A stretch of DNA of 64,000 nt from assembly GCA_965205905.1 (NCBI GenBank), contig CBDBHZ010000012.1, positions 79,528 through 143,527 on the forward strand, written 5' to 3'. Positions 1,248-52,880 of the stretch are shown one piece after another (position 1 is the first letter of the stretch; every line of letters starts with the position of its first letter). The stretch comes from Alphaproteobacteria bacterium. Lineage in GTDB: Bacteria > Pseudomonadota > Alphaproteobacteria > JABAAW01 > JAHZMA01. A program made the translations under genes and the position numbers. Below the pieces are notes generated by a model. It was not told where the DNA came from. It made no database searches and worked only from the letters and a program-made list of their open reading frames with translations.

Positions 1248-1250
1248 CAG

Positions 1251-2572: not shown

Positions 2573-2587
2573 ATCTCACCTCTTATT

Positions 2588-4195: not shown

Positions 4196-4222
4196 TGCGT
4201 TACGACACTATAATTCTGCCTA

Positions 4223-5176: not shown

Positions 5177-5191
5177 TTGTTTTTCCTTAAT

Positions 5192-6211
5192 TTAAGTTTT
5201 ATAGGGCATTACCGTTTGATTGATCGTGCCGAAAATTGAGTTGCCTTCCTCATTGTGCATATCAATGCTGACATGATCACCAAAGCGCATAAAAGGAGTG
5301 ATAGGCTTGCCAGTCAAAATGGTTTCTATCGTGCGTAATTCTGCCAAACAGCTATAGCCAACACCGTCCTCGCTGATGGGTTTGCCCGCACCGCCATCTT
5401 CTGACTTATTAGAAATTGTGCCCGTGCCAATGATAGTGCCAGCGCATAAATTCCGTGTTTTGGCAGCATGCATGATGAGGGTGGGAATATCAAAAACCAT
5501 ATCAACACCCGTTTGCACACGCCCTAATGGCTGTCCGTTTAAGTCTATCCGCATGGCAAGATGTAGCTTACCGCCATCCCATGCCTTGCCTAGCATATCG
5601 GGCGTTACGGCAACAGGTGAAAACGCGCTAGATGGTTTGGATTGAAAGAAGCCAAATCCTTTGGCAAGTTCAGCAGGGATTAAGCCACGTAACGATACAT
5701 CATTCACCAACATGATCAGCAATATTGAAGCTTTTGCGGTTTCATAATCAGCACCCATCGGCACATCATTGGTAATCACCGCAATCTCGGCTTCCATATC
5801 AATGCCCCAAGCCTCGTCCGCCATCATGATAGGTGCGTGTGGCGCTAAAAAACTATCCGAGCCACCCTGATACATTAATGGTTCTTCCCAAAAACTGGCA
5901 GGCATTTCAGCACCGCGCGCTTTACGCACCAATTCCACATGATTAACATAGGCACTGCCATCTGCCCAAGCATAGGCACGGGGCAAGGGTGAGAGCGCGA
6001 TTTTTTGGTCAAACGCCTTGCCACTTGCAGGATTATCGGCTAGCTTTTGCGCTAATGTTTCAAGCAAGGGTGCGACTATCTGCCAATTTTCTACGGCATA
6101 TTGTAAATTTGGTGCAATCATATCAGCATCTAAATAATATTGTAAATCATCAGATACCACAATCAAGCGCCCATCTCGGTTATCAGATGGTAAAGTTGCT
6201 AATTTCATCAT
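5192..6211 (-). CDS. Fumarylacetoacetate hydrolase (FAH) family protein, putative fumarylacetoacetase of the homogentisate pathway
   Basis: 339 aa FAH-fold sequence ([13 protein letters not shown]..., metal-binding acidic residues). It is translationally coupled to hmgA by a 4-nt overlap. Confidence 0.75.
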
Positions 6212-7587: not shown

Positions 7588-7708
7588 ATTATCACCCTTT
7601 TTGTTGTGTCAAAAAAACATATAATGAATATGTTTGTAACAAAACCATTTTATTTTGTCAAGATGGATAAATTGATTTGGAACTAACGGTATTTTATAAT
7701 TAAAGTGA

Positions 7709-7737
7709 TTGACAGTCCATATATAATTTGGTTACAT
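7709..7737 (+). promoter_or_regulatory. Candidate sigma70 promoter for giant lipoprotein gene 1 (TTGACA at 7709-7714; TATAAT at 7722-7727 or TTACAT at 7732-7737)
   Basis: Hexamers read in the 219-bp hmgA/giant-gene divergent intergenic region. No single -35/-10 pair has both good hexamers and ideal spacing. Confidence 0.25.
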
Positions 7738-7806
7738 AGAATATGTGAGACTATGTTTTTAGGGTTTTTTAGGGAGAATGTCTTTTGTTAGGCATTAAGA
7801 GTTACA

Positions 7807-31771: not shown

Positions 31772-31807
31772 GATTTCTATCCTTTTAACATAGCGATAGA
31801 TAAAATT

Positions 31808-31836
31808 ACTATAATGTTTTTTTGGTTGGGGTGCAA
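31808..31836 (-). promoter_or_regulatory. Candidate sigma70 promoter of giant gene 2: -35 TTGCAC (31836-31831), 17-nt spacer containing an A7/T7 homopolymer (31817-31823), -10 TATAGT (31813-31808)
   Basis: Read on the minus strand: TTGCACcccaaccaaaaaaacatTATAGT, ~37 nt upstream of the ATG at 31771. Confidence 0.4.
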
Positions 31837-31877
31837 TAGTGGTTATGGAAATTTTGATAATATCAGCGAGATATAAC

Positions 31878-31905
31878 TTGACTATCATTTGATATTGCTT
31901 ATGAT
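31878..31905 (+). promoter_or_regulatory. Candidate sigma70 promoter of giant gene 3: -35 TTGACT (31878-31883), 16-nt spacer, -10 TATGAT (31900-31905)
   Basis: Read directly in the 166-bp divergent intergenic region; the ATG is at 31938. Confidence 0.4.
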
Positions 31906-31937: not shown

Positions 31938-34900
31938 ATGAACAAATATTTTTATATCATCACTTTATTAATGGTTTCTGTTTTTTTGAATGGTTGTAGC
32001 ACAGAACGTGGTGGCAGTGGCATTGTGAGCTCTGGCGTTGTGAGCGATGATGTGTTTATCGCTGATAGCATTAAGAAAGATGAGACTGATGAAGTTTTTG
32101 CAACCGTTACTCCCTATGGTTCGTTGACGGCAGCATCGGCTGATATCGAGAATACGGACGATAAAATATTCACCTTGCAAGGGTTGGCGGTGCAAGGTGG
32201 TGAGGTTACCAATTACACTGCCGGTGGCGATTTTGGGTGGTCGCAAGATGGTGAGACAAGCATCACTGTTGCCACCATCACAGCGCCTGCTGTGAGCCTC
32301 ACTTTTGATGGTAATGGCAAGATGTCGGCAGTAAAAGCTTATTTCGCTGATAAAACCTATGAAGTTTCCGCTAATGGTAATGATTCCGCCATGCAGATTA
32401 GCGCAACAAATATCACCAGTGGTGCACAAACAGATGCCACTATCGCCACACTTACTGTGGATAGAGACGAGGTTTTTGGCTTTGATTCTAACTATATGGC
32501 ATATATTGGCTGGAATCTTGAAAGAACGCAAGGTGATGCTAATCGTTTAGACTCGCTTGGTAGTGGTAAGGATAGGGCTTATAGTATCAATGGTAATATG
32601 ATTGTAGGAATTGAAACCGATGATGTGAGTATTCCTAGAAATGGTGAGGTTAGTTTTATCGGCAAAGGGCGCGGCTATTACAGCCATGTTGATAAAGGAA
32701 TCAGTAGCCATGCCACGATATTTGATGTTACGACTGATGTTGATTTTTCTACTCAAACTATCAATGTTAATAGTGCGAATACAATGCAATGTGGCAATAG
32801 CATTGATGTTAGCAGTTGCAAAACTGCTGTAGGTGCGCTTGAATTTAGCACGCAAGAAACATTTGTTTACATCACTAATAATAAGATTGGTTTTCGTGGC
32901 GATGTTTCGCTGAAATCCGATAGTAGTTTTACAGGCACCATTGATGCGCGTTTTTATGGCAGTCGCGCACAGGAATTAGGCAGCATATTTGCGATGCGTG
33001 ATGAAACAGGTGGCTATTATTATGGCGCATTTGGCGGTGAGCGCGAGGGGGTGGAAGCGCCCAGCGTATTTAATACAGCAATAGGTGATGAGGCATTAAT
33101 TGTTGCCGAAGAAATAAAGATAGATAATAAGATTACAAACAACCTTCCTGTTAATTCGCTGACCGCTGTGGCTGATGCGGGCGATGGCAATGCGTTTACG
33201 ATGCGCGCTTTAACTGTTTATAAAGATGATACCACCGATTACATACGTGCGCCAAATCGGGATTGGGCTAGGGCGGATACAGCGCGTATGGTTGGACTCA
33301 CACAATTAAGTGGCGCTGCGGCGTCTCTCACTTTTGATGCTGCTGGTAAGATATCAGGTGTAACTGCCTATTTGAATAGTAAAACCTATACAGTCAATGT
33401 GATTGATGACACACTTACACCCACTGCCACGATGTTTAGTGCCAGTATTAACGGTGCGGATAAAGATGCACGCACGACTAACATTACTGTTGATAGAGGC
33501 GATAAATTTTTTGGCTTTGATTCTAATTATATGGCGCATATCAGTTGGAATTTGGAAAAAACAGACGATAAGCTTACGACCGATATGTTGGATGTATATG
33601 ATGACATTTATCATATCAGCGGTGCGATGTTGGCAGGGATTGAGACTGATGATGCGGATATTCACTTGTTCGGCAATCAAGTTTCCTTTAATGGTAAAGG
33701 GCGTGGCACTTATGGTGATTTAGATGGAAGCTATGATACTATATTTGATATAACAGCGATTGTTAATTTTAGCGCGCGCAATCTACTGCTTGCTAGCTCT
33801 AATACTTGCAAAGCGACTGACTGCGAGAATGAGGCGATGCGTGACCTTGATTTCAGTATTTCATCAGCGCCGATATTCTATAATAGTAATAATATCAGTG
33901 CTAATATAAATGATGCAGATTTCGGCTCAGTTGCGCTTGATGCGCGTTTTTATGGCGGTGATGCGTGGGAGTTTGGTGGCACATTCGCGATAACATACGC
34001 GACTAATAATAGCTATTATTATGGCGCATTCGGTGCGTTACGTAAAGGTATCACTGCGCCATCGATATTTGATGCCACAATAGACAGTGAGACGGTAAAG
34101 CTACCAGATAATGTTACGGCGCCGTTTATTCCTATTGATATTGCTACCAACAACCCTTATGAATCTCTCACTGCCATTGCAGGCACTGATAAACGCGTGG
34201 TGCTGAATGCTCTATCAGTTTATAAAGATGATACCACTATTTACACACGGGCGCCAAAGCGAGATTGGGCAACAGATGCGGATAAGGTAACAACAACCAG
34301 TATTCTCAGGCTTACTGACTCTGTTGCATCGCTTGTTTTTACTGGCGATAATAAAGGTGAAACGCTTTACGTGAATGATGTTTATACCAATGATAATGCC
34401 ACAATTACTGTTGATAGAAGTAAGGTTTTTGTTTTTGGTTCTAGCTATATGGCTTATATCAGTTGGGGCATAGATAATGAATTTGATAATGATAACACGG
34501 GCTTAACGGGTGAAGTTGTTGATATTAGTGGTAAGATGCTTGCTGGTATTGAGACCAATGATATGAATATCGCCTTAACTGGCGAGGTTTCCTTTAACGG
34601 CAAAGGGCGTGGCACTTATGGTAATGCAGACGAAGAAATCTACGATACTGTGTTTGATGTTAGGGCGGGAGTTGATTTTGTCGCCAAGAATGTTACGATT
34701 TGGAGTGAGAACACATGCAAAGCAGGTGATGATGCAAAATGTGATGTTGGTGGTGCAGATAGGCGTGATTTTCTTGATTTTACATCAGCGATATTAAGTT
34801 ACGCTGATGGGGAAAGCAATGCGGTCAATCATATCAGCGGTGCTGTTCATGCAGATGGCTTGGCGGGCACAATTGATGCGCGTTTTTATGGTGGTGCAAC

Positions 34901-37900
34901 CGAAGAATTTGGTGGCACATTCGCGCTTACCAACCTATCAAACTATTATTATGGGGTGTTTGGTGCGTTGCGTGGTGGCATTGCTGCATCGACAATATTT
35001 GATAACAACATCGTTGATGAGACGGTAACGCTTCCAGCTGATGTTACCATCAGCACCACTCATAACTCCCTTACCGCTGTGGCTAAAGCAAGCGGCACGA
35101 ATAGTCTCACAATGAAAAGTTTAGCGTTTTATCAAAAAGATACCACCGATTACACGCGGGCGGAAGGTCGCGAATGGAGCACAGCAGATGAGCAAAAAAC
35201 AAGCAGCATGGTCAGGTTGCTGGATTCTGCCGCATCACTTAGTTTTGATGGTGGCGATGTTTCAGCTGTAACGGTTTATTTGAGTGGCACGAATCATACT
35301 GCTGACGCAAGCAAAGTGAAGCGCGCGGCTGATTTTTTTGGCTTTGATTCAAACTATATGGCCTATATCAGTTGGGACATAGATAATCATTTTGATGATG
35401 ATAGCGAGGGTTTAGAGGCGAGTGTTGTTGATTCTAACGGTGTGATGCTGGCGGGTATAGAGACTGCTAGCTTGCTAGATATAACCGCTGGCACAGTTGA
35501 CTTTATCGGCAAAGGGCAGGGTTCTTATGGAGATGCGGACACAAGCTATGACACCATCTTTAATGTGATTGCATCAGTTGATTTTGCTGCAAATAATGTA
35601 ACGATTCGCAGTGAAAACACATGCAAGGCAGTTGAAAATGCTGATTGTGGCGAGAGTGGCACTGATAGGGTGAATGGTCTTAATGTCAACACAGTCGCAA
35701 TCGGCTATGCTGCTAATAGTATCAGCATAAGAAACTTAAATGTAAAAGATATGGATGGTGCGCTTGATGCCCGTTTTTATGGTGATGCAACGCGAGAATT
35801 TGGTGGCACATTCGCGTTTGCCAGTAATATAAGCTATTATTATGGCGCGTTCGGTGCGGAACGTGATGGTGTTGCTGCGCCGATTATATTGAATGTTGCG
35901 AATAATGTGTCGGTAACGTTGCCAAATGATGTTAACATCAGCACCACCTATAACTCTCTTGCCGATGTGGCTGATAGCATCTCTCTTGCCGATATTTATT
36001 ATGGCATAGTCACGAAAAGCATCACGATGAACGCGCTATCTGCCTATCACGATGATACCACCCTTTACACGCGTGCAAGCACGGATAAAGTTTGGACTAC
36101 TAAAGCCGATAAAGCGCAAACCATTGATATTAAAAGTTTTCGTGGCGCGGCGGCATCTCTCATTTTTGATAGTGATGGCAATATATCAGGCGTAACGGCC
36201 TATTTGAACGGGCGCACCTATATTTCCGATGTGATTGATGGCACACTTACTGCCACATCATTTGAAGCAAGCATTACTGGTGCAGATAGTGATGCCAGCA
36301 CGGCAACCATCACTGTTGATAGAAGCGCGCTTTTCGGCTTTGCCTCTAACGATATGGTTTATATCAGTTGGAATCTGGAGAAAACTGAAAGCGCACTTGA
36401 TAACACAATAGAAGATAGCATTTCTAGCAATACTGGCGCGATGATAGCTGGCATTAAAACGTATGAGCTCAATAGTGTCAAATTTCTCAAGGATATAACA
36501 TTTTCAGGTAAGGGGCGTGGCACTTATGGCACGGTGGAAAATAATGAGCTCAAGGGTTATAATACCGTTTTTGATGTTATCGTTGATGTTAATTTGGCTA
36601 ATGCTAGAAAAGCAACGATTCGCAGTGAAAAAACATGTGAGGCGGTTGATAATCCCGATTGCGCGGATGGTGGTGCGAATCGGAAGGATTTTCTTAATTT
36701 CAGCACGGGCGAAATCGCTTACACAGGCAACAGCATCAGCGGTGATGTTGCGCTTGGCAGTAGTAATCTATTTAAAGGCACGCTTGATGCCAGATTTTAC
36801 GGCTATGTTAGGCATGAAATTGGTGGCACATTCTCGCTTGCCAATAGTAACAGCTATTATTATGGTGCGTTTGGTTCAAAGCGCGATGCAGTTTATCAAT
36901 TTGATTTGAATGCTAGTCAGGTTGAATTGCCTGTGGGTGTTGTTGCGAAGCAGAATGTCGCTATACCTGATGCTTCTATTTATCATGCGATTAGTGATAA
37001 AAGTGGCACAGAAGATAGGCTGTTTACCATGAAGGCACTCTCTGTTGGTGTATTTGCTTACACTAATTATGCGCGCTCGCCCAACTATGAGGCATGGGAA
37101 ATATCTGATAGAGATAAATATGTACAATTGGCAAGGTTTGAAAATTCTTTTGCATCGCTTACCATTGATGGAAGCGGAAATTTATCGAATATAGAGGCTT
37201 ACACAAAGGCTGGCTTCGCTAATCTTTCTTACACAGGCAGTTCCTCTAGCCTCAATCAAACCACATTAAGCAGTGATATCAATAATTTTAGAGGAAGCTT
37301 TGCATGGTATGAGACTGATAGCACAACAATCAACGTATCGCGTGATACCAGTCTGTTTGGCTTTGAAGCGACTGATATGGTCTATATCAGTTGGAATATC
37401 GTTGAAAAATTAGGTAATTATGAAAAGCGGGATAGGCAACAAAAACGGCATGGCATGATGATTGCGGGCATTGAAAGTGAGCTTGCACAGATTCCCACCA
37501 TAGAATCAGTAACATTTTCAGGCAAAGGGCGCGGTTATTATGCAAATCTTAAAACTGAAACTGGCTTCCATACAATCTTTAATGTAACGGCGCAAGTTAA
37601 TTTTGCTAATAAGAGCCTATTCATTAGCAGTGATGCGCCTCAAAGATGCACGGATGTGGAAGATGCCAGCACTTGCACTGGTTCGGGGCTTAATGGCTTC
37701 AACGCAATTAATATTCAGTTTTTGGCTAATAATATCAGTGGTGATATTGCTATGGCTAGTAGTGGTACTATACCTCGCTTATCAGGCAAGTTTGATGCGC
37801 GGTTCTATGGTGATGCGGCGCATAAATTGGGTGGCACATTTGCCCTAAGTGATAATGATGGTGATAGTGATAATACGCGCTATTATTATGGGGCGTTTGG

Positions 37901-40900
37901 TGCGCAACGGCTAGATGCTATCACGCAATTTAAGTTTGATGAGACATTGGCTGAAGAATCAGGGCCAAAATCAACATTAGCCTATCTTACCGACAATCAA
38001 ACAGAGTATGATTCGCTTCATGCGGTGGCAGTTACTGATGGCAGTAATAGCTTTACCACCAATGGCAGCGCTGTCTATCAAAGCAATCATATTGATTATG
38101 CCAGAATTGCCAATAAGCAATGGGGTGATGCCAGCACTGATACCGACCATAACATTAATCTCGGCAGGCTTAGTGATGTGGGTGCATCGATTAATTTTGA
38201 TGCTAATGGCAATATTTCAGGCTTTGCCACCTATCTATCAATTAATCCCTATATTGCCACCAATATCTATACAATTACGGTGGATAATCCAGTCTCTAAT
38301 ACTGATGTGGTCTCGCAAAATATCACTGCTACTGATACTCCTGATGATGCCATTACGGGCGTGATGAATCTCTATCGCGGGCAAAGCTTTTTCGGCTTTA
38401 ACTCATATTATATGGCTTATATTGATTGGCAGGTTACCAGAGACTTTACCGATTTAGGCACTGGCACCACTGATAAAAGCTATGATTATAGCGGCGCCAT
38501 GCTCACGGGTATAGAAACAGAGGATGTTAGAATTTTCAATTTGACGGAAGGCATATTTGACTTTAAGGGCAAAGGGCGCGGTGTCTATCACAATACGGAT
38601 ACGGGCAAAGGCGGGCAGACAATCTTTGATGTAACCGCCAATGTTGATTTTGCCACTAAAAAACTCACCATCAATAGTTCAAATAGCATTGTCTGTTTAG
38701 ATATTAACAATATCGGCACTTGCACATCTAACCATAATATCGGTGAATTTTCTAACGGAAGCACCCCTATATCTTATATTGGTAATAATATTAACGGAGC
38801 TGTTACTGCCACTATCGGTAATGCTAGCCTATCAGGCACACTTGATGCCCGCTTCTATGGTGTTAGCCCGTATGGTAGTGGCGCGTATGAATTAGGTGGC
38901 ACATTCGCCATGACTGGAGGCGATTATTACTATTATGGCGCATTCGGTGCTGAACGAATCTATACCAGTGTTGAAAATGTTGCTACCACCCATTCTGAAA
39001 CTCCCTCATCCTCTGATTTTAATAAGCATACTCTAACAGGCTTTAATGCTAACAATCTTGCAGGTAAAACAGGTAATGCCCTACCTGCCAATGCGGTGCA
39101 AATAACAGAATATGACAGTGATCAAAAAATCCTCACTGAAAACATCATGGGTGCAGTGGTAGAATTTGATTATGATGGCGATAGTGAATTTAGCAAATTA
39201 ACATTATATTTTGATGATAAAAAATACATAACAGACGGTTATCCAAACACTGATTCTTTATACATTAAGGATGATTCACCCAGTGGTGGTGCCTATTCAA
39301 TATTCTTTAGAAGAGATTATATTTTCGGTTCTACGAAGAATTATATGGCGGGTGTTGCATGGTCTGTTTCAGTAGATGATTATCCTGAATATTATACTGC
39401 AAGTTATGCCGTTACGGGTTTTGAAACTGTTACAATTCCGGGTAGTGATATGATTGTGTTTACAGGCGAAGGGCGCGGATATTATTCAACGAGTCAGGGG
39501 TTGGGTGAGACTAGTAGTTATGTTTTCTTTGATGTAACTGCCAATATTGATTTCAGCAACCGAAAAGTATATCTATTTGCCAGTGATACTTATCATTTTC
39601 CTCAACTTGATTTTACGGGTCAATTAAGCTATCAAGCAGGCACTAATAACATTAGCGGTGCTATTGAAACAATCGGTGATGGTTATACCAACCTAACAGG
39701 CACAGCCGATGCCAAATTTTATGGCACAGGTGCTGATAGTGCCACAGAATTTGGAGGCACATTCAGCCTGTATAACGAGCAATCAGCCTATGTTGGTTAT
39801 TTCGGTGCAAGCAAATTTATTGATAATATCATAACGACAACCATTACCACTCCTGCACTTAATCAACATAATTTAACAGGCTTTTATGATGGCAACCGCA
39901 CAAGTAAAACCAATAATGCCCTTAAAGCAAGCACTGTGCAGATAACCAAACAGAAAAGCGGTGATGAAGAAATCACCAACGATAGAATCACGGGTGCTGT
40001 GTTTGAATTTGATTATGATGCTGATGGTGATTTTGTGGGTATTCACCATTATTTAGCTGATAAAAAATATAGCAGGACTTCTTCTAATGGCGGTGAAACT
40101 CGTCTTGAATGGGGAACGGTTACGACAAGTAATGGTGACAAACTTAATAATTTTGCGTTCAACACAGAAGGGAGATATATGGCAAGGGTTAAATGGAGAT
40201 TGCTTGAAGAGGAATATACCTATAGAACTTATGCTTATGGTTTCACTGGTTATGAAACCAACTCTATCCCTACCACTGGTGCTGTTAGATTTGCTGGCGA
40301 AGGGCAAGGACAGTATTATTCTACTGACGATTATCCTGATGAGATTTACTTTGATGTAATCGCCAATGTTGATTTTAGCAACCATAATATAACTTTATTA
40401 GTCGGCGAGCTATTATTCGGCAATGAAATTGATCAGAGTCACCATCTTGATTTTACCGCTAATTTAAGCTATCAAGCAGGCACAAATCTTATTAAAGGTG
40501 CGGGTGTAACCATTGGTGATGAGTACGGTAACAACAAACTAATAGGCACGGTTGAAGCAAAATTTTACGGGCCCAATGCCGTAGAATTTGGCGGCACCTT
40601 TAGCTTAAGCAATGATGATACAGCATATATAGGTTACTTTGGTCTTTCACAAAAATATACTCTCTCTCATCAAACATTGGCAACCACATTTCCCAATGTG
40701 CCAACAGCGCCAGCTACCAGCATAACAGGTTTTGATGATACAAACCGCAACAACACAAGTAACCATACCTTAAACAGCACTGTGGTGCAGATGATAAGCA
40801 ACCCTGCTGATAAAATCACCACTCAAAGTAACATTACTGGTGCGGTGATACAGTTTGACTATGATTCTAATGCTAATTTTAACGGCGTAAGGTTCTATTT

Positions 40901-42380: not shown

Positions 42381-42384
42381 CATC

Positions 42385-45300
42385 ATGAACAAATATTTTT
42401 CTATCATCACATTATTAATGGTTTCTATTTTTTTGAATGGCTGTAGCACAGAACGCGGTGGCAGTGGCATTGTGAGCTCTGGCGTTGTGAGCGATGATGT
42501 GTTTATCGCTGATAGCATTAAGAAAATCGATACTGATGGGACTTATACAACTGCTGCCCCCTATGCTTCTTTAACGGCAGCATCGGCTGATATTGATAAT
42601 CAAAACGATAAGATATTCACCTTGCAAGGGTTGGCGGTACAAGGTAGTCAGGTTACCAATTACACTGCCAGTGGTTCTTTGGGGTGGAATCAAGAGGGTG
42701 AGACAAGCATCACTGTTGCCACCATCACAGCGCCTGCTGTATCTCTTACTTTTGATGAAGATGGCATGATGTCGGAAGTAACCGCTTATTTTGCTGATAA
42801 AACCTATAAGTATGATATTGCGCTTGATGAGAGCGTGTCTGCATCTGCTACGCTTATAGATACAAAAGATATTACCAGTGGTGCACAAACCGATGCCACT
42901 ATCGCCACGCTTACTGTAGATAGAACCGAGATTTTCGGCTTTGCTGACAATCAAGGTAACGCACTTGAGTCGAATTATATGGCGTATATTGGCTGGAATT
43001 TTGAAAGAACGCAAGGCGACCCCAACCGATTAAGTTCGCTTAGCAGTGATAAAGATACGGCTTATAGTATTAATGGCAGTATGATTGCGGGCATTGAAAC
43101 AGCGAGTGCGAATATTCCTAGCAATGGTAAGGTGGAATTTATCGGCAAGGGACGTGGGTTTTACAGCCATGTTGATAAAGGCACAGCAAGCCATGCCACC
43201 ATATTTGATGTTACCACTGATGTTGATTTTGTTGCAAAAACAGTGGATGTTAATAGCAAGAATACCATGCGATGTAGTGATAAGAATAAAGCCAGTAGTT
43301 GCACAACTGCCCTAAATGGACTTAATTTTGGCACGACAGAAACATTCATTTACATTATCGGTGATGCGGTTGGTTTTCGTGGTGATGTTTCATTGAAAGC
43401 GAATAAAACTTTTACGGGTACAATTGATGCGCGTTTTTATGGTGGCAGAGCGCAAGAGCTAGGCAGTACATTTGCGATGCGTGATGAAACAGGTGGCTAT
43501 TATTATGGCGCATTTGGTGGTGAGCGAGAGGGGGTTGAAGCATCGCCTTTATTGGATGCCACAATAGCTGATGAGACGATAACGCTTCCAAATGATGTTA
43601 TCGCGCCATTGATTCCCATTGATATTACGACCGCCAACCCTTATGAAAATCTGACTGCTATTGCAGGCACTGATAAACGTGTGGTGCTGAATGCGTTATC
43701 GGTTTATCAAGATAATACCACGCAATATATACGGACACTGAATCGGGATTGGGCAACAGATGCTGATAAGGTAACAACAACCAGTATCGTCAGGCTTGCT
43801 GGCTCTGCGGCATCGCTTGTTTTTGCTGGCGATAATCAGGGTGCAACGCTTTACGCGAAAGAGATTTATACCAATGATGATGCGACTATTATTGTTGATA
43901 GAAGCACGATTTTTGGTTTTGGTTCTAGTTATATGGCCTATATCAGCTGGGATGATATAGATAATGAATTTGATAATGATAACACGGGCTTAACGGGTGA
44001 AGTTGTTGATATTAGTGGTAAGATGCTTGCTGGTATTGAGACCAATGATATGAATATCCCCTTAACTGGCGAGGTTTCCTTTAACGGCAAAGGGCGTGGC
44101 ACTTATGGCAATGTAACGACAAGCGAGGATACTGTGTTTGATATAACAGCAGAGGTTGATTTTGTTGGCAAGAATGTTACAACAATTAGTAGCAAGAACA
44201 CATGCAAAGCGTTTGATGGTGCTAAATGTGGCGTTGGTGGTTCTGATAGGCTTGATTTTCTCAATTTCACATCAGCGATATTAAGTTACGCTGATACAGA
44301 TAATGCGACAGTCAATCATATCAGCGGTGCTGTTCATGCAGATGGTTTGGCGGGCACGGTTGATGCACGTTTTTATGGTGGCGCAACCGAAGAATTTGGC
44401 GGTACATTCGCGCTTAACGATAGTTCAAATTATTATTATGGGGTGTTTGGTGCGTTGCGTGGTGGCATTGCTGCATCAACAATATTTGATAATAACATAG
44501 TTGACGAGACGGTAATGCTTCCAGCTGATGTTACCATCAGCACTGGCAATAATTTGCTTAATAATACGAATGATGGTGATATTGTAACGTTGAAAGTGCT
44601 ATCATTTTATCAAAATGATAGCACCGATTATACGCGGGCGGAAAATCGGGATTGGGGCACAGCGGATGAGCGAAAAACAACCAGCGTGGTCAGGATGCTA
44701 GGTTCTGCGGCATCGCTTAGTTTTGATGGTGGCGGTAATATATCAGGCGTAACGGCTTATTTGAAAGATTCCACGCACACGGCTGACCCAAGCAAAGTGA
44801 AGCGCGGGACTGATTTTTTCGGGTTTGATTCAAACTATATGGCTTATATCAGCTGGGATATAGATAATCATTTTGATGATGATAGCGAGGGTTTAAAGGC
44901 GCGCGTTGTTGATTCTAGCGGTGCGATGCTGGCGGGTATAGAAACGACTAATTTGCTAGATAATACAGCTGGCACGGTTGAATTTAAGGGCAGAGGGCAG
45001 GGTGCTTATGGCGATGCGGACGACGATTATGCCACCATCTTTGATGTAACCGCATCAGTTAATTTTGTTGATAATAATATAACGATTTACACTGAAAACA
45101 CGTGCCAAGCAGATGATTGCACGAAGCAGCCAGAGAATAGTCTTAATTTCAACACAGGCGCAATCGGTTTTGCTGATAATAGCATCAGCAAAAGGAACTT
45201 AAATGTAAAAGGGATGGATGGTGCGCTTGATGCCCGTTTTTATGGTGAGAAAACGCGTGAATTTGGCGGCACATTCGGGTTTGCCAGTAATTTAAGCTAT

Positions 45301-48300
45301 TATTATGGCGCGTTCGGTGCGGAACGTGATGGTGTTGTTGCGCCGATTACATTGACTACTTTTAACCCGAATGGCGCAAATGTTTCAACCATCAATACTG
45401 CTATTGCTGCCAATAATCCTTCTTTCAACTCCCTTACCGATGTGGTTGATGCAGGTGATGGCAATGCTTTCACGATGCGTGCGCTATCAGCCTATGAATA
45501 TGATAACACAACCTACACACGCGTGAGTAACAATAAAGAGTGGAGCAGCAAAGCCGATAAAGCGCAAAGCATTTATATTGTAGGGCTTTCAGGCGCGGGC
45601 GCCTCGCTCACTTTTGGTGGTGATGGCAATATATCGGGCGCAACCGCCTATTTGAACGGCATCACATATACAACCGCTGACCTTACGGTTGATAGAAGCA
45701 CGATTTTTGGCTTTGCCTCTCACAATATGGCTTATATCAGTTGGAATTTGCAGAAAGCTGAAAGCGCGCTTGATAATGAAAGCGATTATTTATACGATTT
45801 CATCTTTGACGATGCAGGTATGATGCTAGCGGGTGTTGAAACCGCTGAAACTGTTTACGATATGGATGGCGATGTTGAAACGGAAGGCAAAATTCTCACA
45901 TTCGCTGCGGCTGAATTTACGGGCAAGGGCAAAGGCACTTATGGTACGGTTACCAATAATGTTCTCACGGGCTACAATACCATCTTTGATGTGACCGCAT
46001 CAGTTGATTTTGAGGGTAGGGCGGTAACAATTCGCAGTGAAAATACTTGCGAGGCGGTTACAAACCCCGATTGCACAGATAATGGCGTGAATCGGCAAGA
46101 TTTTCTTGATTTAAGCACATCGGCTTTAAGTTTTGTCAGTGCTCCTGATATTTATGGAGATAGCGTTGCTGTCAACAGCATCAGCGGTGATGTTGCGCTT
46201 GATAGCAGTAATATATTTAAAGGCACGCTTGATGCCAGATTTTACGGCTATGCTGGGCGTGAATTTGGTGGCACATTCTCGCTTGCCAACGCCAGCAGCT
46301 ATTATTACGGTGCGTTTGGTGCCAAGCGCGAGACGGTTTACAAGTTTGCTTTGGATGATGCGAAGATTGCGGCACCTGATAGACGAGATGCTCAATTTAC
46401 GCTAGATGCTCCTGATGTTTCACTTCATCATGCGATTAACGATGCAAGCGCCACAGAAGATAGAGAGTTTACGATGAATGCATTGGTTGTCAGTGCAAAT
46501 AATTACACTGATTATGCGCGTGCGCCCGGTGAAGCATGGGAAACATCGAATAGAAATAAAAAGTTTAGTCTGGGAAGAGTTGCAGGGTCGCATATATCAC
46601 TTACCATTGATGAAGATGGCAAACTATCTTATATGGTTGCGCGCGAATTAGGCAGCGGCTCTCTCACTGATGATGGCAAAGGCGATCAAACTTTATCAGC
46701 AGTTGATAGAAATGAGACGAACACTAGTCTAGACATCATCAACATATCGCGCCGTGAAGAGATATTTGGTTTCGTGATGACTGATATGGTCTATATCGAT
46801 TGGAACAGGAGTAATAAATTGCTTGCAATCGGTGATCCCGAAACAGAAGCCTTTATAGGCGGAAATCATGGCATGATGATTGCGGGTATTGAAACTGATT
46901 ATGCACAGATGCCTACCGCAAACGCAGTTGTTACTTATTCTGATGATGATGAAGAAGATGATTATGATATAGGTAATGATCATTATGCTATTGCAGTTAA
47001 ATTTACGGGCAAAGGGCGCGGCTATTATGCAAATCTTAAAACTGAAACTGGTTTTCATACTATCTTTGATGTAACGGCGCATGTTGATTTTGTTAGTGAA
47101 TATATAACGATTGATAGCGGCGCCCCTCTTAAATGCACAGATGTGAATGATTCAAGCACATGCTCTGCTTCAGGGCTTACTGGTTTTTATGCGATTGATG
47201 ATATATATTATAATGCTAATGATATAAGCGTTGATATTGCGCTTGAAAATGATTATCAATTTCAAGGCACGCTTGATGCGCGCTTCTATGGCGATGGCGC
47301 GCATAAATTTGCTGGCACTTTTGCCATGAGTGATAGTGATAATACGCGTTATTATTATGGTGCGTTTGGCGCGCAGAGAGAAACGGCGATTGAAGAATTT
47401 AACTTTGATAAAACATTGGCTGAAGAATCAGGGCCTAAATCAACATTAGACTATCTTACAGTCAACCAAACGCCACATGAGTCGCTTCATGCAGTGGCGG
47501 TTGCTGATGGCAAGAATGGTTTCACCACGAAAGCTCTGGCAGTCTATCAAAGCAATCATAAAGATTATGCCAGAGTGCCAAATAAAGCTTGGGATGATGC
47601 CAGCACTGATAAAGACCATAATATTAATCTCGGCAAACTTAGCGGTGCTGGTGCAACCATTGTTTTTGATGAAAATGGTAATATTTCAGGCTTTGCCACC
47701 TATTTATCATCTAACCCCTATATTGCCACCAATATCTATACAATTACGGTGGAAAATCCTGTCTCTAACAGTGATGTGGTTTCGCAAAATATTACGGATA
47801 CCGATACTCCTGATGATACCTCTACGGGCGTGATGAATCTGTATCGTGGTGAAAGCTTTTTTGGCTTTAACTCAGAATATATGGCATATATTGATTGGCG
47901 GGTAACCAGAACATTTGCTGATTTGGGTGATGACACCATTGATAGAAGCTATGATTATAGCGGTGCCATGATTGCGGGCATAGAAACGACAGACACAAAG
48001 CTTTCTAATAATTCATCAGGTATAGTGAACTTTAAGGGCAGAGGGCGTGGCTCCTATTACAACACCAACACGGGCATTGGCGAGCAAACAATCTTTGATG
48101 TAACCGCTAAACTTGATTTTGGCAATAAAAATGTTACCATCAATAGTGCCAACACCATTGCCTGTGCTGATTTCAGCAATATTGGCACTTGTGGCATTTC
48201 TGATATTGGTGAGTTTTCTACGGGCATTATATCTTATAGGGACAATCTAATGTATTCTCATAGTGCTCATAATAATATCAGTGGCGCTGTTAAAGCCAAT

Positions 48301-51300
48301 ATCGGCGCTGCCACCTTAACAGGCACGCTTGATGCCCACTTTTATGGTAATAAGGGTGGAATTGGTTCAAATGAAATAGGTGGCACATTTACCATGAGTA
48401 ATGAGGCATATTATTATTATGGTGTATTTGGTGCAGAAGGACTTTATGTTAACGTGAATAACATTGATTCCACTGTTAGCACCGATGAGGAATTCACCCA
48501 AAATAGCACAACTATGACCGCGCCAATAAAAGACAATCTTAATATAAATGGTCTAACAAGCTTTAATGATGATGCCCGCAAAGGCAAAAATAATAACGCT
48601 TTTAAAGTATCAACTTTTACAACCATGAAAGCAAATGATAATCAAACTATGGATATTAATAAATTTTCTGATGCTGTGGTTAGTGTTGATTTTTTAGGTG
48701 GTGGTGGTTATGACGATGGTTATATGGGTGATTTTAGACTTTATTTTGATGATAAAAAATATGACACCACTATGCAAGACTCAAGTAAAAGATGGCGTAA
48801 CACGAACTATGTTTATGTAGCTTATCCATCAGATATTGACACTCACCAGATTATGTTAGACAGATCTGTAGGGGAACGGAATTTTGGTGCTGCTTTTCGT
48901 CCCGGCTTTACTCCCGATTATATGGCAAAAGTTGGATTTTTCACTCCGTCCGGCTATAGAGAGACTATAGGTTTTGGCATCATCGGCTTTGAAACTGCTG
49001 CTAACAATATGCCGATGGCAAGCAGTGCTGTATTTGCTGGCAGAGGGCGGGGGCACTACATGGATAATGGCGGTCAGGTGAACACATATTTTGATGTCGC
49101 CGTCAATGTTGATTTTAACATGCGTGATATTGAATTCTTTGCTATTAATACATGTAGCGATGATTCGTTTTTATTTTGCAGGCAAGGTGCTCATTCGGAA
49201 AAGCATTACTTGGATATGATAGCAAATTTAAGCTATACAGCGAGTAATAACACCATCAGCGGTGGTATTACAACTGCAGGCGGTGGGCTTAATGAAACAT
49301 TAACAGGCACCATCGATGCCAGTTTTTATGGCACAAAAGGCACAGGGTATGATAATGCGGCAAAAGAATTTGGTGGCACATTTCTTGTGAGTAATAATCG
49401 CGAAGCCTATGGCGGTTGGTTTGGCACTAGAAGAGTAGCAAGCATTGCGAACCTAGCAACCACTATTACGACGCCTACACTTAATCAACATAATCTAACA
49501 AGCTTTGATGATGCTAACGGTGCCAATACAACCGGCACCGCCCTTCCAGCAATGGCTGTGCAGATAACAAAACAGAAAATGGGTGATAAAACAATTACCA
49601 CCGACAAAATAACGACACCTGTGGTTGAAGTGAGTTTTGGTAATTATGATGAATTTTACACTTATCATGTTAATGATGAATCAGATAGTGGTTGGGGTCG
49701 GCTTAACGCTCCTGTATTCGCTGGCTTTAACATCTATTGGGCTGATAAAAAATATAGCACAACTGGCGCAAATAATAACAGCGCTAATCACATCAAACAC
49801 ATAAATTTTTATGATAATAGCATGCCTACTACCAGCGCTGGTGAGACACCTTCTGAGATTCGCCTCAGCAGATACAATGGATGGGCTGCTACCTACGACG
49901 GCAAAGGACATTATTTTGGGTTTCTTCCTAAATATATGGTAAGAATTAACTGGATGTTGGATGAGAATGCATATGAAGCTGAGGGGCATGGTATCGCTGG
50001 TTTTGAAACTGATGGTAGCAATATTCCGAGCGTGGGGCATATCGAATTTAAAGGCAGAGGGCATGGACGCTATTATTCTAACTCAAGTGCCGAGTATTTT
50101 TACTTTGATATAACCGCCAATGTTAATTTTGCCAGCCGTTATGTAACATTAGAAAGCTCAAATACATGCAATAAAGCTTACCGTTACAATGCAGCATGTT
50201 CGAATGCAAGTGCGCGGCGAGAAGATTTTGATTTTAATGGGATATTAAGTTACAAGGCAGGTGAAAATAAAATGAGTGGTGGGGTTACCAACTTTGTTGA
50301 GTCATCAAAATTATTTGGCACAGCTGAAGCAAGATTTTACGGACCAGAGTTTCAAGAATTTGGTGGCACATTTGCCATGCAAAATACCGATGCAGCCTAT
50401 GTCGGCTATTTCGCTACCGAACGAATTACCAGTGTTATCCCAACTTCGCCTACTCCCTCCAGCAACAGCAACCATAACAATCTTGTTAGCTTTACTGATG
50501 ATGCCCGTAACGATACAAGCGGTAATAAATTTATAGCCATCGCCACCAACATCACCAAACATAGCGATGGCACAATTACCAATGGCGATTTCACCACTGC
50601 CGCGGTTGAATTAGCCTATGATGCTGATGGAGATTTCAGTGATGCCAGTCTCTATTTGCCTGATAGAAAATATAGCACAACCGCTAGCAGTGTTGGCACA
50701 AGCGATGATATTACTGATAACGCGCCTGTTGTTGCTGATAACACTCATGATACACCTGCTACTTTATTGTTATCTAGAAATACCGATAAATTTACTTTTA
50801 CGCCTGAATATATGGCAAGTCTTTATTGGCGGGTAACTAAAGATGCTTACGAGACCAGTGGCTATGCGATGACTGGTTTTAAAACTGATGGCAATAATTT
50901 TTATAGCCATGGTGGTGTTAAGTTCTCAGGTGGTGGGGAAATGAGCTATTCTAGTAGCAGCAGTAACATTACGAGTTCGTTTTCTACAACTGCCAATGTT
51001 AATTTTATAGATTATAATATCAGTCTAACAACAGACCAGAATGATAACAATAATGATTTTCTCAATCTTACGGGCGATTTAAGCTATAATCCTAAAGTAA
51101 ACCGCCTTACTGGCACGGTTAAAACGGCGGGCAATGATAAAAATCATGATGCGCTTGACGGCACAGAATTATCAGGCACCGCAGATGCCAGATTTTATGG
51201 TCCCGATCTAGAAGAATTAGGTGGTATATTTAATGTCAGCAATGCTGATGCAAGCGCCGTTGGTTGGTTCGGGTTAGAAAAACTTGGTGAAACTTTTACT

Positions 51301-52140
51301 AACTATCCTGAAATACCAACAACATTTAATGAACATAATCTAACCAGTTTTACTGATAATAATCGCAAAGGCACAACGGGTAATGCGCTAAAAGTGTCTT
51401 CGGTTGTCAGTTTAATCGATGGTAATGATATATTCACGGATGTGAGAAGTGACGGTTCGGTGGTTGTTTTTGATTATGATGATGGTGGTAATTTTGATAA
51501 CTTCACATTATATATTGATGATAAAAAATATGGCACGAGTAATGTTAATGGCGACGATATTAGTATTAGTGATACATCGCCTACTATTTATGGCGAGCAT
51601 CATGCGCTTCGCGAATTCTTTCTTGACAGACAGAGTGGTGCTTTTGGGTTTACGGCCAATTATATGGCGAGAGTTTATACGCTGACAGCATATAATTATT
51701 ATTACACGAACACAACTTACGCCATGACTGGTTTTGAAACGATGGGCAATAATATCCCTATGAATGGCGCTTCTGTTAACTTTTCAGGCAGGGGCGAGCT
51801 GAAATATCATGGCACTAATTTTAACACTGGTACTGCTTTTGATGTTACTGCCACTGTTAATTTTGAAACCCGCAATATCAACCTAGAAACCGACCATAAT
51901 GATGAGGAACGACGCTATCTCGATATGACGGGAAATTTAAGCTATGAACCTAATACAAACGCACTTACGGGCACATTTACAACCGTAGGCGATAGTAGCA
52001 ATGTTGAGAAGCCGTCATTAACAGGCACAATAGAAGCCCGCTTTTACGGGCCAGCGGCAGAAGAATTTGGTGGCACATTCAGCGCAAGCATACCTGAATC
52101 AGAGATAGGCTATATCGGCACGTTCGGCGCAAAAAAGTAA
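42385..52140 (+). CDS. Giant surface lipoprotein 4 (3251 aa): colinear paralog of gene 3, ~6 type-1 + 4 type-2 lobe modules
   Basis: Real start ATG at 42385 (MNKYFSIITLLMVSIFLNGCSTERGGSG..., RBS GAGGAA), 4 nt after the gene-3 stop. The track ORF start at 42337 is read-through. The first ~140 nt are near-identical to the gene-3 start. YYYGAFG markers fall at ~43495, 44421, 45295, 46295, 47350 and 48410. It lacks the counterpart of gene-3 module 2. Confidence 0.85.
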   Translation: MNKYFSIITLLMVSIFLNGCSTERGGSGIVSSGVVSDDVFIADSIKKIDTDGTYTTAAPYASLTAASADIDNQNDKIFTLQGLAVQGSQVTNYTASGSLGWNQEGETSITVATITAPAVSLTFDEDGMMSEVTAYFADKTYKYDIALDESVSASATLIDTKDITSGAQTDATIATLTVDRTEIFGFADNQGNALESNYMAYIGWNFERTQGDPNRLSSLSSDKDTAYSINGSMIAGIETASANIPSNGKVEFIGKGRGFYSHVDKGTASHATIFDVTTDVDFVAKTVDVNSKNTMRCSDKNKASSCTTALNGLNFGTTETFIYIIGDAVGFRGDVSLKANKTFTGTIDARFYGGRAQELGSTFAMRDETGGYYYGAFGGEREGVEASPLLDATIADETITLPNDVIAPLIPIDITTANPYENLTAIAGTDKRVVLNALSVYQDNTTQYIRTLNRDWATDADKVTTTSIVRLAGSAASLVFAGDNQGATLYAKEIYTNDDATIIVDRSTIFGFGSSYMAYISWDDIDNEFDNDNTGLTGEVVDISGKMLAGIETNDMNIPLTGEVSFNGKGRGTYGNVTTSEDTVFDITAEVDFVGKNVTTISSKNTCKAFDGAKCGVGGSDRLDFLNFTSAILSYADTDNATVNHISGAVHADGLAGTVDARFYGGATEEFGGTFALNDSSNYYYGVFGALRGGIAASTIFDNNIVDETVMLPADVTISTGNNLLNNTNDGDIVTLKVLSFYQNDSTDYTRAENRDWGTADERKTTSVVRMLGSAASLSFDGGGNISGVTAYLKDSTHTADPSKVKRGTDFFGFDSNYMAYISWDIDNHFDDDSEGLKARVVDSSGAMLAGIETTNLLDNTAGTVEFKGRGQGAYGDADDDYATIFDVTASVNFVDNNITIYTENTCQADDCTKQPENSLNFNTGAIGFADNSISKRNLNVKGMDGALDARFYGEKTREFGGTFGFASNLSYYYGAFGAERDGVVAPITLTTFNPNGANVSTINTAIAANNPSFNSLTDVVDAGDGNAFTMRALSAYEYDNTTYTRVSNNKEWSSKADKAQSIYIVGLSGAGASLTFGGDGNISGATAYLNGITYTTADLTVDRSTIFGFASHNMAYISWNLQKAESALDNESDYLYDFIFDDAGMMLAGVETAETVYDMDGDVETEGKILTFAAAEFTGKGKGTYGTVTNNVLTGYNTIFDVTASVDFEGRAVTIRSENTCEAVTNPDCTDNGVNRQDFLDLSTSALSFVSAPDIYGDSVAVNSISGDVALDSSNIFKGTLDARFYGYAGREFGGTFSLANASSYYYGAFGAKRETVYKFALDDAKIAAPDRRDAQFTLDAPDVSLHHAINDASATEDREFTMNALVVSANNYTDYARAPGEAWETSNRNKKFSLGRVAGSHISLTIDEDGKLSYMVARELGSGSLTDDGKGDQTLSAVDRNETNTSLDIINISRREEIFGFVMTDMVYIDWNRSNKLLAIGDPETEAFIGGNHGMMIAGIETDYAQMPTANAVVTYSDDDEEDDYDIGNDHYAIAVKFTGKGRGYYANLKTETGFHTIFDVTAHVDFVSEYITIDSGAPLKCTDVNDSSTCSASGLTGFYAIDDIYYNANDISVDIALENDYQFQGTLDARFYGDGAHKFAGTFAMSDSDNTRYYYGAFGAQRETAIEEFNFDKTLAEESGPKSTLDYLTVNQTPHESLHAVAVADGKNGFTTKALAVYQSNHKDYARVPNKAWDDASTDKDHNINLGKLSGAGATIVFDENGNISGFATYLSSNPYIATNIYTITVENPVSNSDVVSQNITDTDTPDDTSTGVMNLYRGESFFGFNSEYMAYIDWRVTRTFADLGDDTIDRSYDYSGAMIAGIETTDTKLSNNSSGIVNFKGRGRGSYYNTNTGIGEQTIFDVTAKLDFGNKNVTINSANTIACADFSNIGTCGISDIGEFSTGIISYRDNLMYSHSAHNNISGAVKANIGAATLTGTLDAHFYGNKGGIGSNEIGGTFTMSNEAYYYYGVFGAEGLYVNVNNIDSTVSTDEEFTQNSTTMTAPIKDNLNINGLTSFNDDARKGKNNNAFKVSTFTTMKANDNQTMDINKFSDAVVSVDFLGGGGYDDGYMGDFRLYFDDKKYDTTMQDSSKRWRNTNYVYVAYPSDIDTHQIMLDRSVGERNFGAAFRPGFTPDYMAKVGFFTPSGYRETIGFGIIGFETAANNMPMASSAVFAGRGRGHYMDNGGQVNTYFDVAVNVDFNMRDIEFFAINTCSDDSFLFCRQGAHSEKHYLDMIANLSYTASNNTISGGITTAGGGLNETLTGTIDASFYGTKGTGYDNAAKEFGGTFLVSNNREAYGGWFGTRRVASIANLATTITTPTLNQHNLTSFDDANGANTTGTALPAMAVQITKQKMGDKTITTDKITTPVVEVSFGNYDEFYTYHVNDESDSGWGRLNAPVFAGFNIYWADKKYSTTGANNNSANHIKHINFYDNSMPTTSAGETPSEIRLSRYNGWAATYDGKGHYFGFLPKYMVRINWMLDENAYEAEGHGIAGFETDGSNIPSVGHIEFKGRGHGRYYSNSSAEYFYFDITANVNFASRYVTLESSNTCNKAYRYNAACSNASARREDFDFNGILSYKAGENKMSGGVTNFVESSKLFGTAEARFYGPEFQEFGGTFAMQNTDAAYVGYFATERITSVIPTSPTPSSNSNHNNLVSFTDDARNDTSGNKFIAIATNITKHSDGTITNGDFTTAAVELAYDADGDFSDASLYLPDRKYSTTASSVGTSDDITDNAPVVADNTHDTPATLLLSRNTDKFTFTPEYMASLYWRVTKDAYETSGYAMTGFKTDGNNFYSHGGVKFSGGGEMSYSSSSSNITSSFSTTANVNFIDYNISLTTDQNDNNNDFLNLTGDLSYNPKVNRLTGTVKTAGNDKNHDALDGTELSGTADARFYGPDLEELGGIFNVSNADASAVGWFGLEKLGETFTNYPEIPTTFNEHNLTSFTDNNRKGTTGNALKVSSVVSLIDGNDIFTDVRSDGSVVVFDYDDGGNFDNFTLYIDDKKYGTSNVNGDDISISDTSPTIYGEHHALREFFLDRQSGAFGFTANYMARVYTLTAYNYYYTNTTYAMTGFETMGNNIPMNGASVNFSGRGELKYHGTNFNTGTAFDVTATVNFETRNINLETDHNDEERRYLDMTGNLSYEPNTNALTGTFTTVGDSSNVEKPSLTGTIEARFYGPAAEEFGGTFSASIPESEIGYIGTFGAKK
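42540..48440 (+). repeat. Intragenic tandem array of ~6 type-1 lobe modules in giant gene 4, followed by 4 type-2 modules to 52140
   Basis: Motif periodicity read from the translation. Boundaries are approximate. Confidence 0.65.
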
Positions 52141-52145
52141 TAGCC

Positions 52146-52880
52146 GTGGATTTTAGCGATAAAGCTGTTTTAATTACGGGTGGCAGTGGCGGTATCGGCA
52201 AAGGGATTGCACAAAAATTTAAGCAAGCAGGTGCGAAAATTGCGTTGGTTGACTTAAAGTTTGAAGGTGAAACATTTGCTGATGCGTGTTTTACGGGCGA
52301 TATTACCGATGCGGATTATGTTCAAAATTTACCGCAAAAAACCATTGATGCGCTAGGCGGTTTAGATGTTATTGTCAATAATGCAGGTGTGATGCGGCGT
52401 GGTAAAATCACCGATAGCAGTGATGCTGATTTTGATGTTTCGGTTGCCGTCAATATCAAAGCGCCGTTTCAATTATGCCGTGCCGCCATTCCTTTGATGG
52501 CAAAAAATGGCGGTGGCGCGATTGTGAATATCGCCTCGTGCTGGGGGGTTCATGCGGGGGCAGACCACGCAATTTATTGTATGAGCAAAGCGGCATTGGC
52601 ATCTTTAACCCAATGTATGGGGCGCGACCATGCCCATCAAAATATTCGCATTAATGCCGTCTGCCCGAATGAGGTTGATACGCCAATGCTCCGCACGGGA
52701 TTTGAATTGCGCGGCTTTAACCCCGAAACTGCGATTGCTGAGTTGGGTAAGACTGTGCCGTTGGGGCGGGTTTCAACCCCTGACGATATTGCGGAAATTG
52801 TGCTGTTTTTGGCATCTGACCATGCGCGCTATATGTGCGGTTCATTGGTTGAAGTCAATGGTGGCAAGGCGGTAAGTTAA
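52146..52880 (+). CDS. SDR-family oxidoreductase (short-chain dehydrogenase/reductase)
   Basis: 244 aa with TGGSGGIGKGIA Rossmann motif, NNAG, and a catalytic S...Y..K (YCMSKAAL). It has a GTG start 5 nt after the giant-gene-4 stop. Confidence 0.75.
   Translation: MDFSDKAVLITGGSGGIGKGIAQKFKQAGAKIALVDLKFEGETFADACFTGDITDADYVQNLPQKTIDALGGLDVIVNNAGVMRRGKITDSSDADFDVSVAVNIKAPFQLCRAAIPLMAKNGGGAIVNIASCWGVHAGADHAIYCMSKAALASLTQCMGRDHAHQNIRINAVCPNEVDTPMLRTGFELRGFNPETAIAELGKTVPLGRVSTPDDIAEIVLFLASDHARYMCGSLVEVNGGKAVS

Follow-up and report, generated by a model that had tools for sequence, protein, structure and literature searches.

Adjacent giant poly-lobe lipoprotein genes of an alphaproteobacterium form an identity mosaic consistent with gene conversion between old tandem paralogs

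The 64,000-nt stretch of alphaproteobacterial contig CBDBHZ010000012.1 analysed here (the window) is a chromosomal segment of ordinary catabolic and transport genes, including hmgA, TRAP and ABC transporters, MttB, and SDRs. It also carries two giant lipoprotein genes, g3 and g4, that lie directly adjacent on the same strand and whose products are built from modules of typically ~310 aa (~280-340 aa). The modules were delimited with a hidden Markov model (HMM) built from the proteins themselves, which matches 11 times in the g3 product and 10 times in the g4 product. An earlier reading of the DNA alone (the original prediction) described the pair as colinear tandem paralogs with a mosaic of near-identical tracts produced by recombination and gene conversion. 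The features of the pair are as follows, all on the plus strand.

31878-31905, plus strand: sigma-70-like promoter candidate upstream of g3, TTGACT-16-TATGAT (10/12 in a consensus scan)
31938-42380, plus strand: g3, encoding a 3480-aa lipoprotein with 11 TbpB-lobe/fHbp-like modules (7 A-type and 4 shorter B-type)
33054-34052, plus strand: g3 module 2 as defined by the module HMM
34864-34925, plus strand: reference copy of the module-end motif IDARFYG...EFGGTFA, from a repeat search and a module-boundary alignment
38958-42377, plus strand: g3 modules 8-11, B-type, diverged from and not colinear with g4 modules 7-10 (48439-52137)
Inside the g3 3′ end, plus strand: ribosome-binding site (RBS) of g4, GGAGCGAGGAAA, read from the sequence
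42381-42384, plus strand: 4-nt g3/g4 spacer, CATC, read from the sequence
42385-52140, plus strand: g4, encoding a 3251-aa lipoprotein with 10 modules (6 A-type and 4 B-type)

The two open reading frames (ORFs) are indeed separated by 4 nt, with the g3 stop codon TAA at 42378-42380 and the g4 start codon ATG at 42385. Because the spacer is this short, the g4 RBS lies within g3, a promoter-like site precedes g3, and no plus-strand terminator-like site was found between the genes, g3 and g4 are probably co-transcribed and translationally coupled; none was found directly after g4 either. Both products begin with a signal peptide of the form MNKYF.IITLLMVS.FLNGCSTERGG, with lipobox LNGC and Cys20. 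The same tandem arrangement recurs in L002, a 28-kb long-read metagenomic contig that carries the best protein match (P0001), where gene A (1384-9999, with 9 modules and with frameshifts due to low coverage) is followed by gene B (10001-16849, 7 modules). The junction between the end of A and the start of B matches that of g3 and g4 except for two substitutions, ...GGAGCGA(G/A)GAAATAACAT(C/G)ATGAAC. Since L002 holds a syntenic pair with this junction, the duplication must antedate the split from the L002 lineage; since L002 is an independent long-read contig, the pair is not an assembly artefact of one gene. A single gene split by error was also rejected, given the clean stop codon, the RBS, and the new signal peptide, all of which are kept in L002.

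The colinearity predicted over ~10 kb stands for the first six module pairs and fails for the last four. The colinear 5′ block pairs g3 31938-38957 with g4 42385-48438 (~7 kb vs ~6 kb) at 77% nucleotide and 69% amino acid identity, and is resolved by blastn into four high-scoring segment pairs:

g3 31938-33092 with g4 42385-43575, 78.7%
g3 33937-36222 with g4 43424-45670, 79.7%
g3 36312-37170 with g4 45685-46612, 68%
g3 37507-38963 with g4 46994-48447, 75%

In a module identity matrix (3.1 being the first module of g3), the six pairs fall on a diagonal at 57-80% amino acid identity: 3.1-4.1 at 73%, 3.3-4.2 at 80%, 3.4-4.3 at 73%, 3.5-4.4 at 62%, 3.6-4.5 at 57%, and 3.7-4.6 at 70%. The 3′ block is 57.7% identical in nucleotides and 40.6% in amino acids, its module pairs share only 33-50% of their amino acids, and the best partner of a module lies off the diagonal or in its own gene (3.11 with 4.9, 4.10 with 3.8, 3.8 with 3.9). 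Exact g3/g4 runs of at least 20 nt number 30 in the 5′ block, seven of them at least 40 nt long, vs 2 in the 3′ block.

Within the 5′ block, identity rises and falls in tracts. Those where g3 and g4 are unusually alike are listed here, the attribution to conversion being putative.

31938-32240, plus strand: 5′ homogenised tract (partner 42385-42687), spanning signal peptide, lipobox, and N-terminal linker
34180-34690, plus strand: wider zone round the best tract (partner ~43664-44175), in which g3 is nearer to g4 than to the L002 copies
34470-34621, plus strand: youngest putative conversion tract, g3 copy, at the start of the module-3 barrel; 151/152 nt identical to the g4 copy
43957-44108, plus strand: youngest putative conversion tract, g4 copy, in module 2 of g4; evidence as for the g3 copy
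36716-36890, plus strand: candidate older conversion tract (partner ~46128-46335), not significant alone
37504-37670, plus strand: candidate older conversion tract (partner ~46932-47155), weak and in a poorer alignment

The near-identity claimed for the 5′ ends is borne out, with 136 of 143 nt (95%) shared between 31938-32080 and 42385-42527 and 88% identity over 300 nt. Across this tract the g3-g4 identity (0.83-0.94) exceeds that of all cross-genome pairs (0.72-0.83), and sites at which g3 agrees with g4 against A outnumber sites at which g3 agrees with A against g4 by 46:17. The best tract was also correctly identified: 34470-34620 shares 150 of 151 nt with its true partner at 43957-44107, 2 nt away from the position first given (43955-44105). 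Its longest perfect run is 102 nt (a further perfect g3-g4 run measures 69 nt), a repeat search extends it to 157 nt at 99%, and over the same columns the identity of the g3 copy to L002 A and B falls to ~79-80%. The third tract, proposed as 35281-35440 vs 44791-44950, proved to be mis-registered; its partner is 44762-44921, the identity is 138 of 160 nt (86%), and the segment is equally conserved in L002. The less similar neighbouring segments that had been described are present, at ~77-85% identity.

Synonymous divergence follows the same pattern. Nei-Gojobori estimates (dS) between g3 and g4 fall to 0.03 in 34470-34621, vs 0.40 and 0.42 in its flanks within the same module, and to 0.14 in the first 51 codons, vs 0.58 in the rest of module 1; they are 0.6-0.8 in the middle modules and 0.8-1.7 in the last four. 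Uniform divergence along the alignment, which would have spoken against conversion, is therefore rejected (0.03 in the tract, 0.14 at the 5′ end, 0.4-0.6 in flanks, 0.8-1.7 in the 3′ modules). In the best tract, 47 codons in a row are synonymously identical (34470-34619; permutation P~0.001). The wider zone has g3-g4 identities of 0.83-0.99 vs 0.66-0.86 for cross-genome pairs, and informative sites at 34038-34638 favour g4 over A by 93:37. Of the older candidates, 36716-36890 has g3-g4 identities of 0.85-0.87 vs 0.69-0.78 for g3-A, with a proportion of synonymous differences (pS) of 0.18 vs 0.47-0.50 in its flanks, and the bin 36738-37038 favours g4 over A by 46:18; 37504-37670 reaches 0.88 and 0.78 vs 0.73 and 0.70 for g3-A.

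Comparison with L002 reveals that the relationships among the four genes switch along their length. In sliding windows at 37013-38330, g3 is closer to A (0.76-0.97) than to g4 (0.54-0.82), for which reason we regard g3 and A as orthologous; the 3′ end of g3 is likewise 77% identical to that of A vs 66-69% to g4. At 31938-32240 and 34180-34690, by contrast, g3-g4 identity lies above every cross-genome pair (0.83-0.99 vs 0.66-0.86). Of g4 and A, it is g4 that lies closer to g3 at 31938-32238, 34038-34638, and 36738-37038, and A that does so at 35838-36438 and 37038-39230. Parsimony-informative sites back the grouping (g3,g4|A,B) both in module 1 (53:14:19) and in the shared module after it (67:22:11), but stand at 68:67:40 further 3′. 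A 3SEQ-like walk of g3 against g4 and A yielded P<5e-5, also when restricted to well-aligned columns, and a Sawyer-type run test on polymorphic sites picked out a g3-g4 tract at 34472-34566 (P<=2e-4). The same test detected an independent tract between A and B within L002 (2707-2804 vs 11299-11395; P<=2e-4; 98% identity in a 150-nt window), which sits in the same module as the best tract of the window. The pair thus appears to have been homogenised separately in each lineage, and in corresponding regions of the gene, the signature expected of interlocus concerted evolution, a concept established for prokaryotic paralogs (PMC6053082, PMC3924843). With dS depressed, the topology switching, and the Sawyer and 3SEQ-like tests in agreement, the proposal that the mosaic arose by recombination or gene conversion is supported.

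Module number varies alongside identity. As predicted, g4 has no equivalent of g3 module 2, which appears as a 333-aa gap at 33057-34055 of the alignment; the breakpoint falls inside the conserved module-end motif IDARFYG...YYYGAFG. The module-end motif occurs in 16 copies across g3 and g4 at a spacing of ~0.85-1.07 kb, wider where a copy was missed. A genome-contig scan returned a distant 4-kb fragment (L001) as its sole match and no close relative, and two metagenome-contig scans gave no match. A more distant homologue, P0145, lies at 808-14283 of contig JAHZIR010028512.1 (L004; NCBI GCA_022605385.1) and, at 4,491 aa and 14 modules, is the largest family member seen. Module 2 is missing from g4, A, B, and L001 and present in P0145. 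This distribution argues that it is ancestral and was later deleted, the deletion perhaps spreading by conversion; a gain specific to g3 was rejected because P0145 carries the module. No recent donor of module 2 was found, the best match being 70% over ~370 nt. Overall, g3, g4, A, B, and P0145 contain 11, 10, 9, 7, and 14 modules, respectively, in support of the size variation that had been suggested. Antigenic variation, suggested with it, is for g3 and g4 an analogy only. Trees rooted with L004 were too noisy for a direction of conversion to be assigned, L004 being only ~70% identical.

Taken together, we consider it probable that g3 and g4 are old paralogs, duplicated in tandem before the split from the L002 lineage, whose first six module pairs have undergone repeated short interlocus conversion while modules were gained and lost by unequal exchange. 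Non-reciprocal homologous recombination would repeatedly copy stretches of ~150-500 nt from one gene to the other within the six colinear module pairs, the youngest such event being 34470-34621 with 43957-44108, and the 5′ 150-300 nt would have been homogenised fairly recently too. RecA-type recombination requires identical seed runs. Conversion would preserve exact runs of at least 20-100 nt in the 5′ block, and these could seed further RecA-type recombination, so that conversion should keep itself going in the 5′ modules and have died out in the 3′ modules, as would follow from their 30 vs 2 exact runs. The four 3′ modules would lie below the recombination threshold and be free to diverge, and the 5′-to-3′ gradient in dS fits such seed-dependent conversion. 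The conserved ~20-nt motifs at module ends would permit in-register unequal exchange, through which whole modules may be gained or lost (g3 module 2, and the range of 7-14 among relatives); this is a likely source of module turnover because the motif stands at every module end and the module-2 breakpoint falls within it.

Several observations weigh against this interpretation, some of them in favour of specific alternatives. One is that the paralogs diverged steadily and that the identity peaks reflect purifying selection or codon constraint on the signal peptide and on barrel and module-end motifs. Several peaks do coincide with motifs common to all modules (YMAYISW, G.MIAGIET, GKGRG.Y, IDARFYG, YYYGAFG), and the peaks at 35281-35440, 35742-35891, and 32985-33035 are conserved equally well in L002 A and are therefore attributed to constraint or motifs held in common, not to paralog-specific conversion. 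In the pairwise comparison, 34470-34621 is the one tract that reaches significance by itself, as the other synonymous runs (<=25 codons) each lie inside the permutation null. To call conversion ongoing is to extrapolate from a single very young tract. Furthermore, L002, which served as the comparator, is a long-read contig of 3x depth that contains frameshifts, and on third codon positions alone the 3SEQ-like mosaic test weakens to P~0.03-0.04. Constraint nevertheless fails to account for the synonymous identity of the best tract (dS 0.03 vs 0.4) or for the divergence of the same columns in L002, and selection does not produce tree topologies that switch along a gene. Low dS confined to the paralog pair, together with the topological incongruence, largely refutes this alternative, which we regard as very unlikely.

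Import of alleles from other strains or species, in place of exchange between g3 and g4 within one genome, would also create a mosaic. Part of the pattern does point to exchange between lineages, not between paralogs: at 37960-38330, g3 is 90-97% identical to A (L002 6442-6815), whereas the genes are ~77% identical overall, which suggests either a recent between-lineage exchange or unusually strong constraint. In addition, g4 is nearer to A than to g3 in two segments (32230-32420 and 35245-35600), g3 is nearer to B at 32760-32910, and a third giant gene of the window, g1, diverges from its counterpart in another contig far more than its flanking housekeeping genes do (see below). Import leaves unexplained, however, why the highest identity is specific to two copies 10 kb apart in one genome and why L002 has its own A-B tract. 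As the main source of the mosaic it is therefore unlikely, and allelic import and paralog exchange probably operate together. An origin of the tracts, or of the whole second copy, in chimeric assembly or cross-polishing of repeats is very unlikely. The genes are internally repetitive, with their 16 module-end repeats, and in public data both are known as singletons, from a single contig of 579,725 nt; yet L002, assembled independently from another sample, has the same arrangement and junction, the copies are 77% identical overall, both ~10-kb reading frames are intact, and the tract flanks (80-85% identical) are too divergent for routine mis-mapping of reads. The hazard of assembly collapse raised in the original prediction is low, given that the longest identical run is 102 nt.

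Conversion and unequal exchange between tandem surface-type paralogs are textbook processes, of which g3 and g4 would be a well-documented new example. A silent-cassette system of the pilE/pilS, vlsE, or msp2 type was ruled out, since g3 and g4 are complete genes that each have a start codon, an RBS, and a lipobox of their own; no truncated cassettes of the g3/g4 subfamily were found in the window. Neisseria fHbp and tbpB alleles are modular mosaics formed by homologous recombination, and resemble g3 and g4 in fold family and in segmental mosaicism, but their exchange is allelic, between strains at one locus, whereas that proposed for g3 and g4 runs between tandem paralogs. A closer parallel is the interlocus gene conversion between the paralogous outer-membrane adhesin genes babA and babB of Helicobacter pylori (PMC5483490), where full-length paralogs of one genome likewise undergo short non-reciprocal exchange and carry tracts nearer to the paralog than to the orthologue. 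Unlike babA and babB, g3 and g4 lie side by side with 4 nt between them, each spans ~10 kb, and each is built of modules, and for this reason the same recombination may also alter module number.

The modules themselves were assigned by profile and structure comparison. PF01298 (TbpB_B_D) matches the g3 product at E=1.7e-57, in 9 stretches, and the g4 product at 1.9e-43, the best stretch lying at the extreme C-terminus in each (3359-3480 and 3143-3251). An AlphaFold2 model of g3 module 3, computed from an alignment of 31 modules, reached a pLDDT of 89.2 and a pTM of 0.89, and its top Foldseek matches in the Protein Data Bank (PDB), all at probability 1.00, are to fHbp, TbpB lobes, the LbpB N-lobe, and hemophilin HphA; the NHBA barrel is matched as well (E 1.6e-8 to 7e-7 over the set), and PDB 7nru, a "natural chimera of fHbp", is also among the matches. 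The TM-scores of 0.3-0.5 are modest, owing to a different orientation of the handle relative to the barrel. On the strength of this model and these matches, every module is predicted to be a TbpB-lobe/fHbp-type unit of a beta-sheet handle and an 8-stranded barrel, as in cargo of the Slam/type XI secretion system (T11SS). A-type modules end in YYYGAFG. The last four modules of g3 and g4 (B-type; 38958-42377 and 48439-52137) end in AYVGYFG, carry a YFDDKKY motif, and are more alike one another than like A-type modules; the same two-part architecture occurs in P0145 and P0147.

Known Slam/T11SS-dependent surface lipoproteins include TbpB, LbpB, fHbp, HpuA, and HphA of Neisseria, Pasteurellaceae, and Acinetobacter (PMC5449769, PMC9090332, PMC8406197). 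They share with g3 and g4 an N-terminal lipobox, a C-terminal PF01298 8-stranded barrel, and the handle-plus-barrel lobe seen in each module. They consist of 1-2 lobes and 250-700 aa, vs 10-11 lobes and 3,250-3,480 aa for the g3 and g4 products, and they belong to pathogens, whereas g3 and g4 stand in a free-living (marine-type) alphaproteobacterial gene context. The window also differs in what accompanies the genes: a Pfam scan of its 27 ORFs of at least 150 aa gave no DUF560 (Slam) match, and a gene for a TonB-dependent receptor partner was likewise not found in the 64 kb. The NF041636 (slam_lipo) cutoff of 80 bits is not reached by g3 (74.7 bits) or g4 (34.8 bits). The products thus have the fold and lipoprotein nature of the Slam-dependent family, while their Slam dependence is putative, and their location is presumably the cell surface. 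Nearer in form are surface proteins of Sphingomonas and Psychrobacter, predicted T11SS cargo with multiple TbpBBD domains (PMC12282271), which according to the accessible part of that report are also lipoproteins with several barrels per chain in non-pathogenic Proteobacteria. Their N-termini consist of proline-threonine(-aspartate) repeats, which the g3 and g4 products lack, and that part of the report does not mention 10-14-module proteins of >3,000 aa or tandem paralog pairs.

A profile search over 1.84 billion representative proteins recovered 156 proteins at E<=1e-30; further ones of 7-14 modules, reaching 4,491 aa, are among them. The g4 product is identical to the public protein P0146 and the g1 product to P0148, both among the matches, and all named homologues come from alphaproteobacterial metagenome-assembled genomes (MAGs). 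In the literature consulted, in part as partial text, multi-TbpBBD cargo is described only in Sphingomonas and Psychrobacter and no such giants were found described, so the family of giant poly-lobe lipoproteins appears to be undescribed. A lobe known from pathogen lipoproteins that bind host iron sources or complement factors with one or two copies thus also occurs in environmental alphaproteobacterial giants of 10-14 lobes, a by-product of the analysis that is more interesting than the conversion itself. We put forward, as a speculation of low probability, that these proteins form an undescribed poly-lobe class of the TbpB/fHbp fold in uncultured marine Alphaproteobacteria, with as many as 14 modules and as much as 4,491 aa, in which paralogs and modules act as self-recombining, diversity-generating surface cassettes. 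If so, free-living bacteria would possess a diversity-generating surface system, selected for example by phage, grazers, or the capture of varied ligands, and the giants might be exported without a neighbouring Slam translocon. For annotators and MAG builders, such loci are best treated as recombining repeats, in which segment-by-segment orthology should not be assumed.

The remaining PF01298 barrels of the window also belong to large genes. Five of its ORFs contain them, all within 45 kb; besides g3 and g4 these are:

7807-17109, plus strand: g1, 3100 aa and 10 modules (10 module-HMM matches), ~30% identical to g3/g4, adjoining hmgA
25938-29426, minus strand: TbpB-barrel ORF
29555-31888, minus strand: TbpB-barrel ORF

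At the position syntenic to g1, contig L003 carries a giant gene (1-9754) whose product has at least 3,687 aa. Against this counterpart g1 is ~66-70% identical in nucleotides with scrambled diagonals, whereas the flanking hmgA-FAA-MBL genes are 87% identical, and because of this difference the whole giant family appears to evolve fast relative to its surroundings. The giants would thus outpace their flanking genes (~67% vs 87%), partly through exchange within the genome. P0145 is a single gene in L004, followed by a divergent Peptidase_S8 gene.

An Rfam search returned no RNA families in the window. Directly downstream of g4, an SDR gene (52146-52880) has a GTG start 5 nt past the g4 stop (52140), with no terminator-like site between them; the metabolic genes downstream may be transcribed together with g4, or the start of the SDR gene may have been called wrongly. 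The two minus-strand ORFs (29555-31888 and 25938-29426) resemble one gene of ~1,950 aa and ~6 modules with a frameshift near 29,600. Its likely lipoprotein start is at ~31771 (MRHLLISTISVLSLITLTAC), and the ORF at 25938-29426 has no signal peptide and begins mid-module at "...YMARIDW". The frameshift could reflect a pseudogene, a sequencing error, or phase variation.

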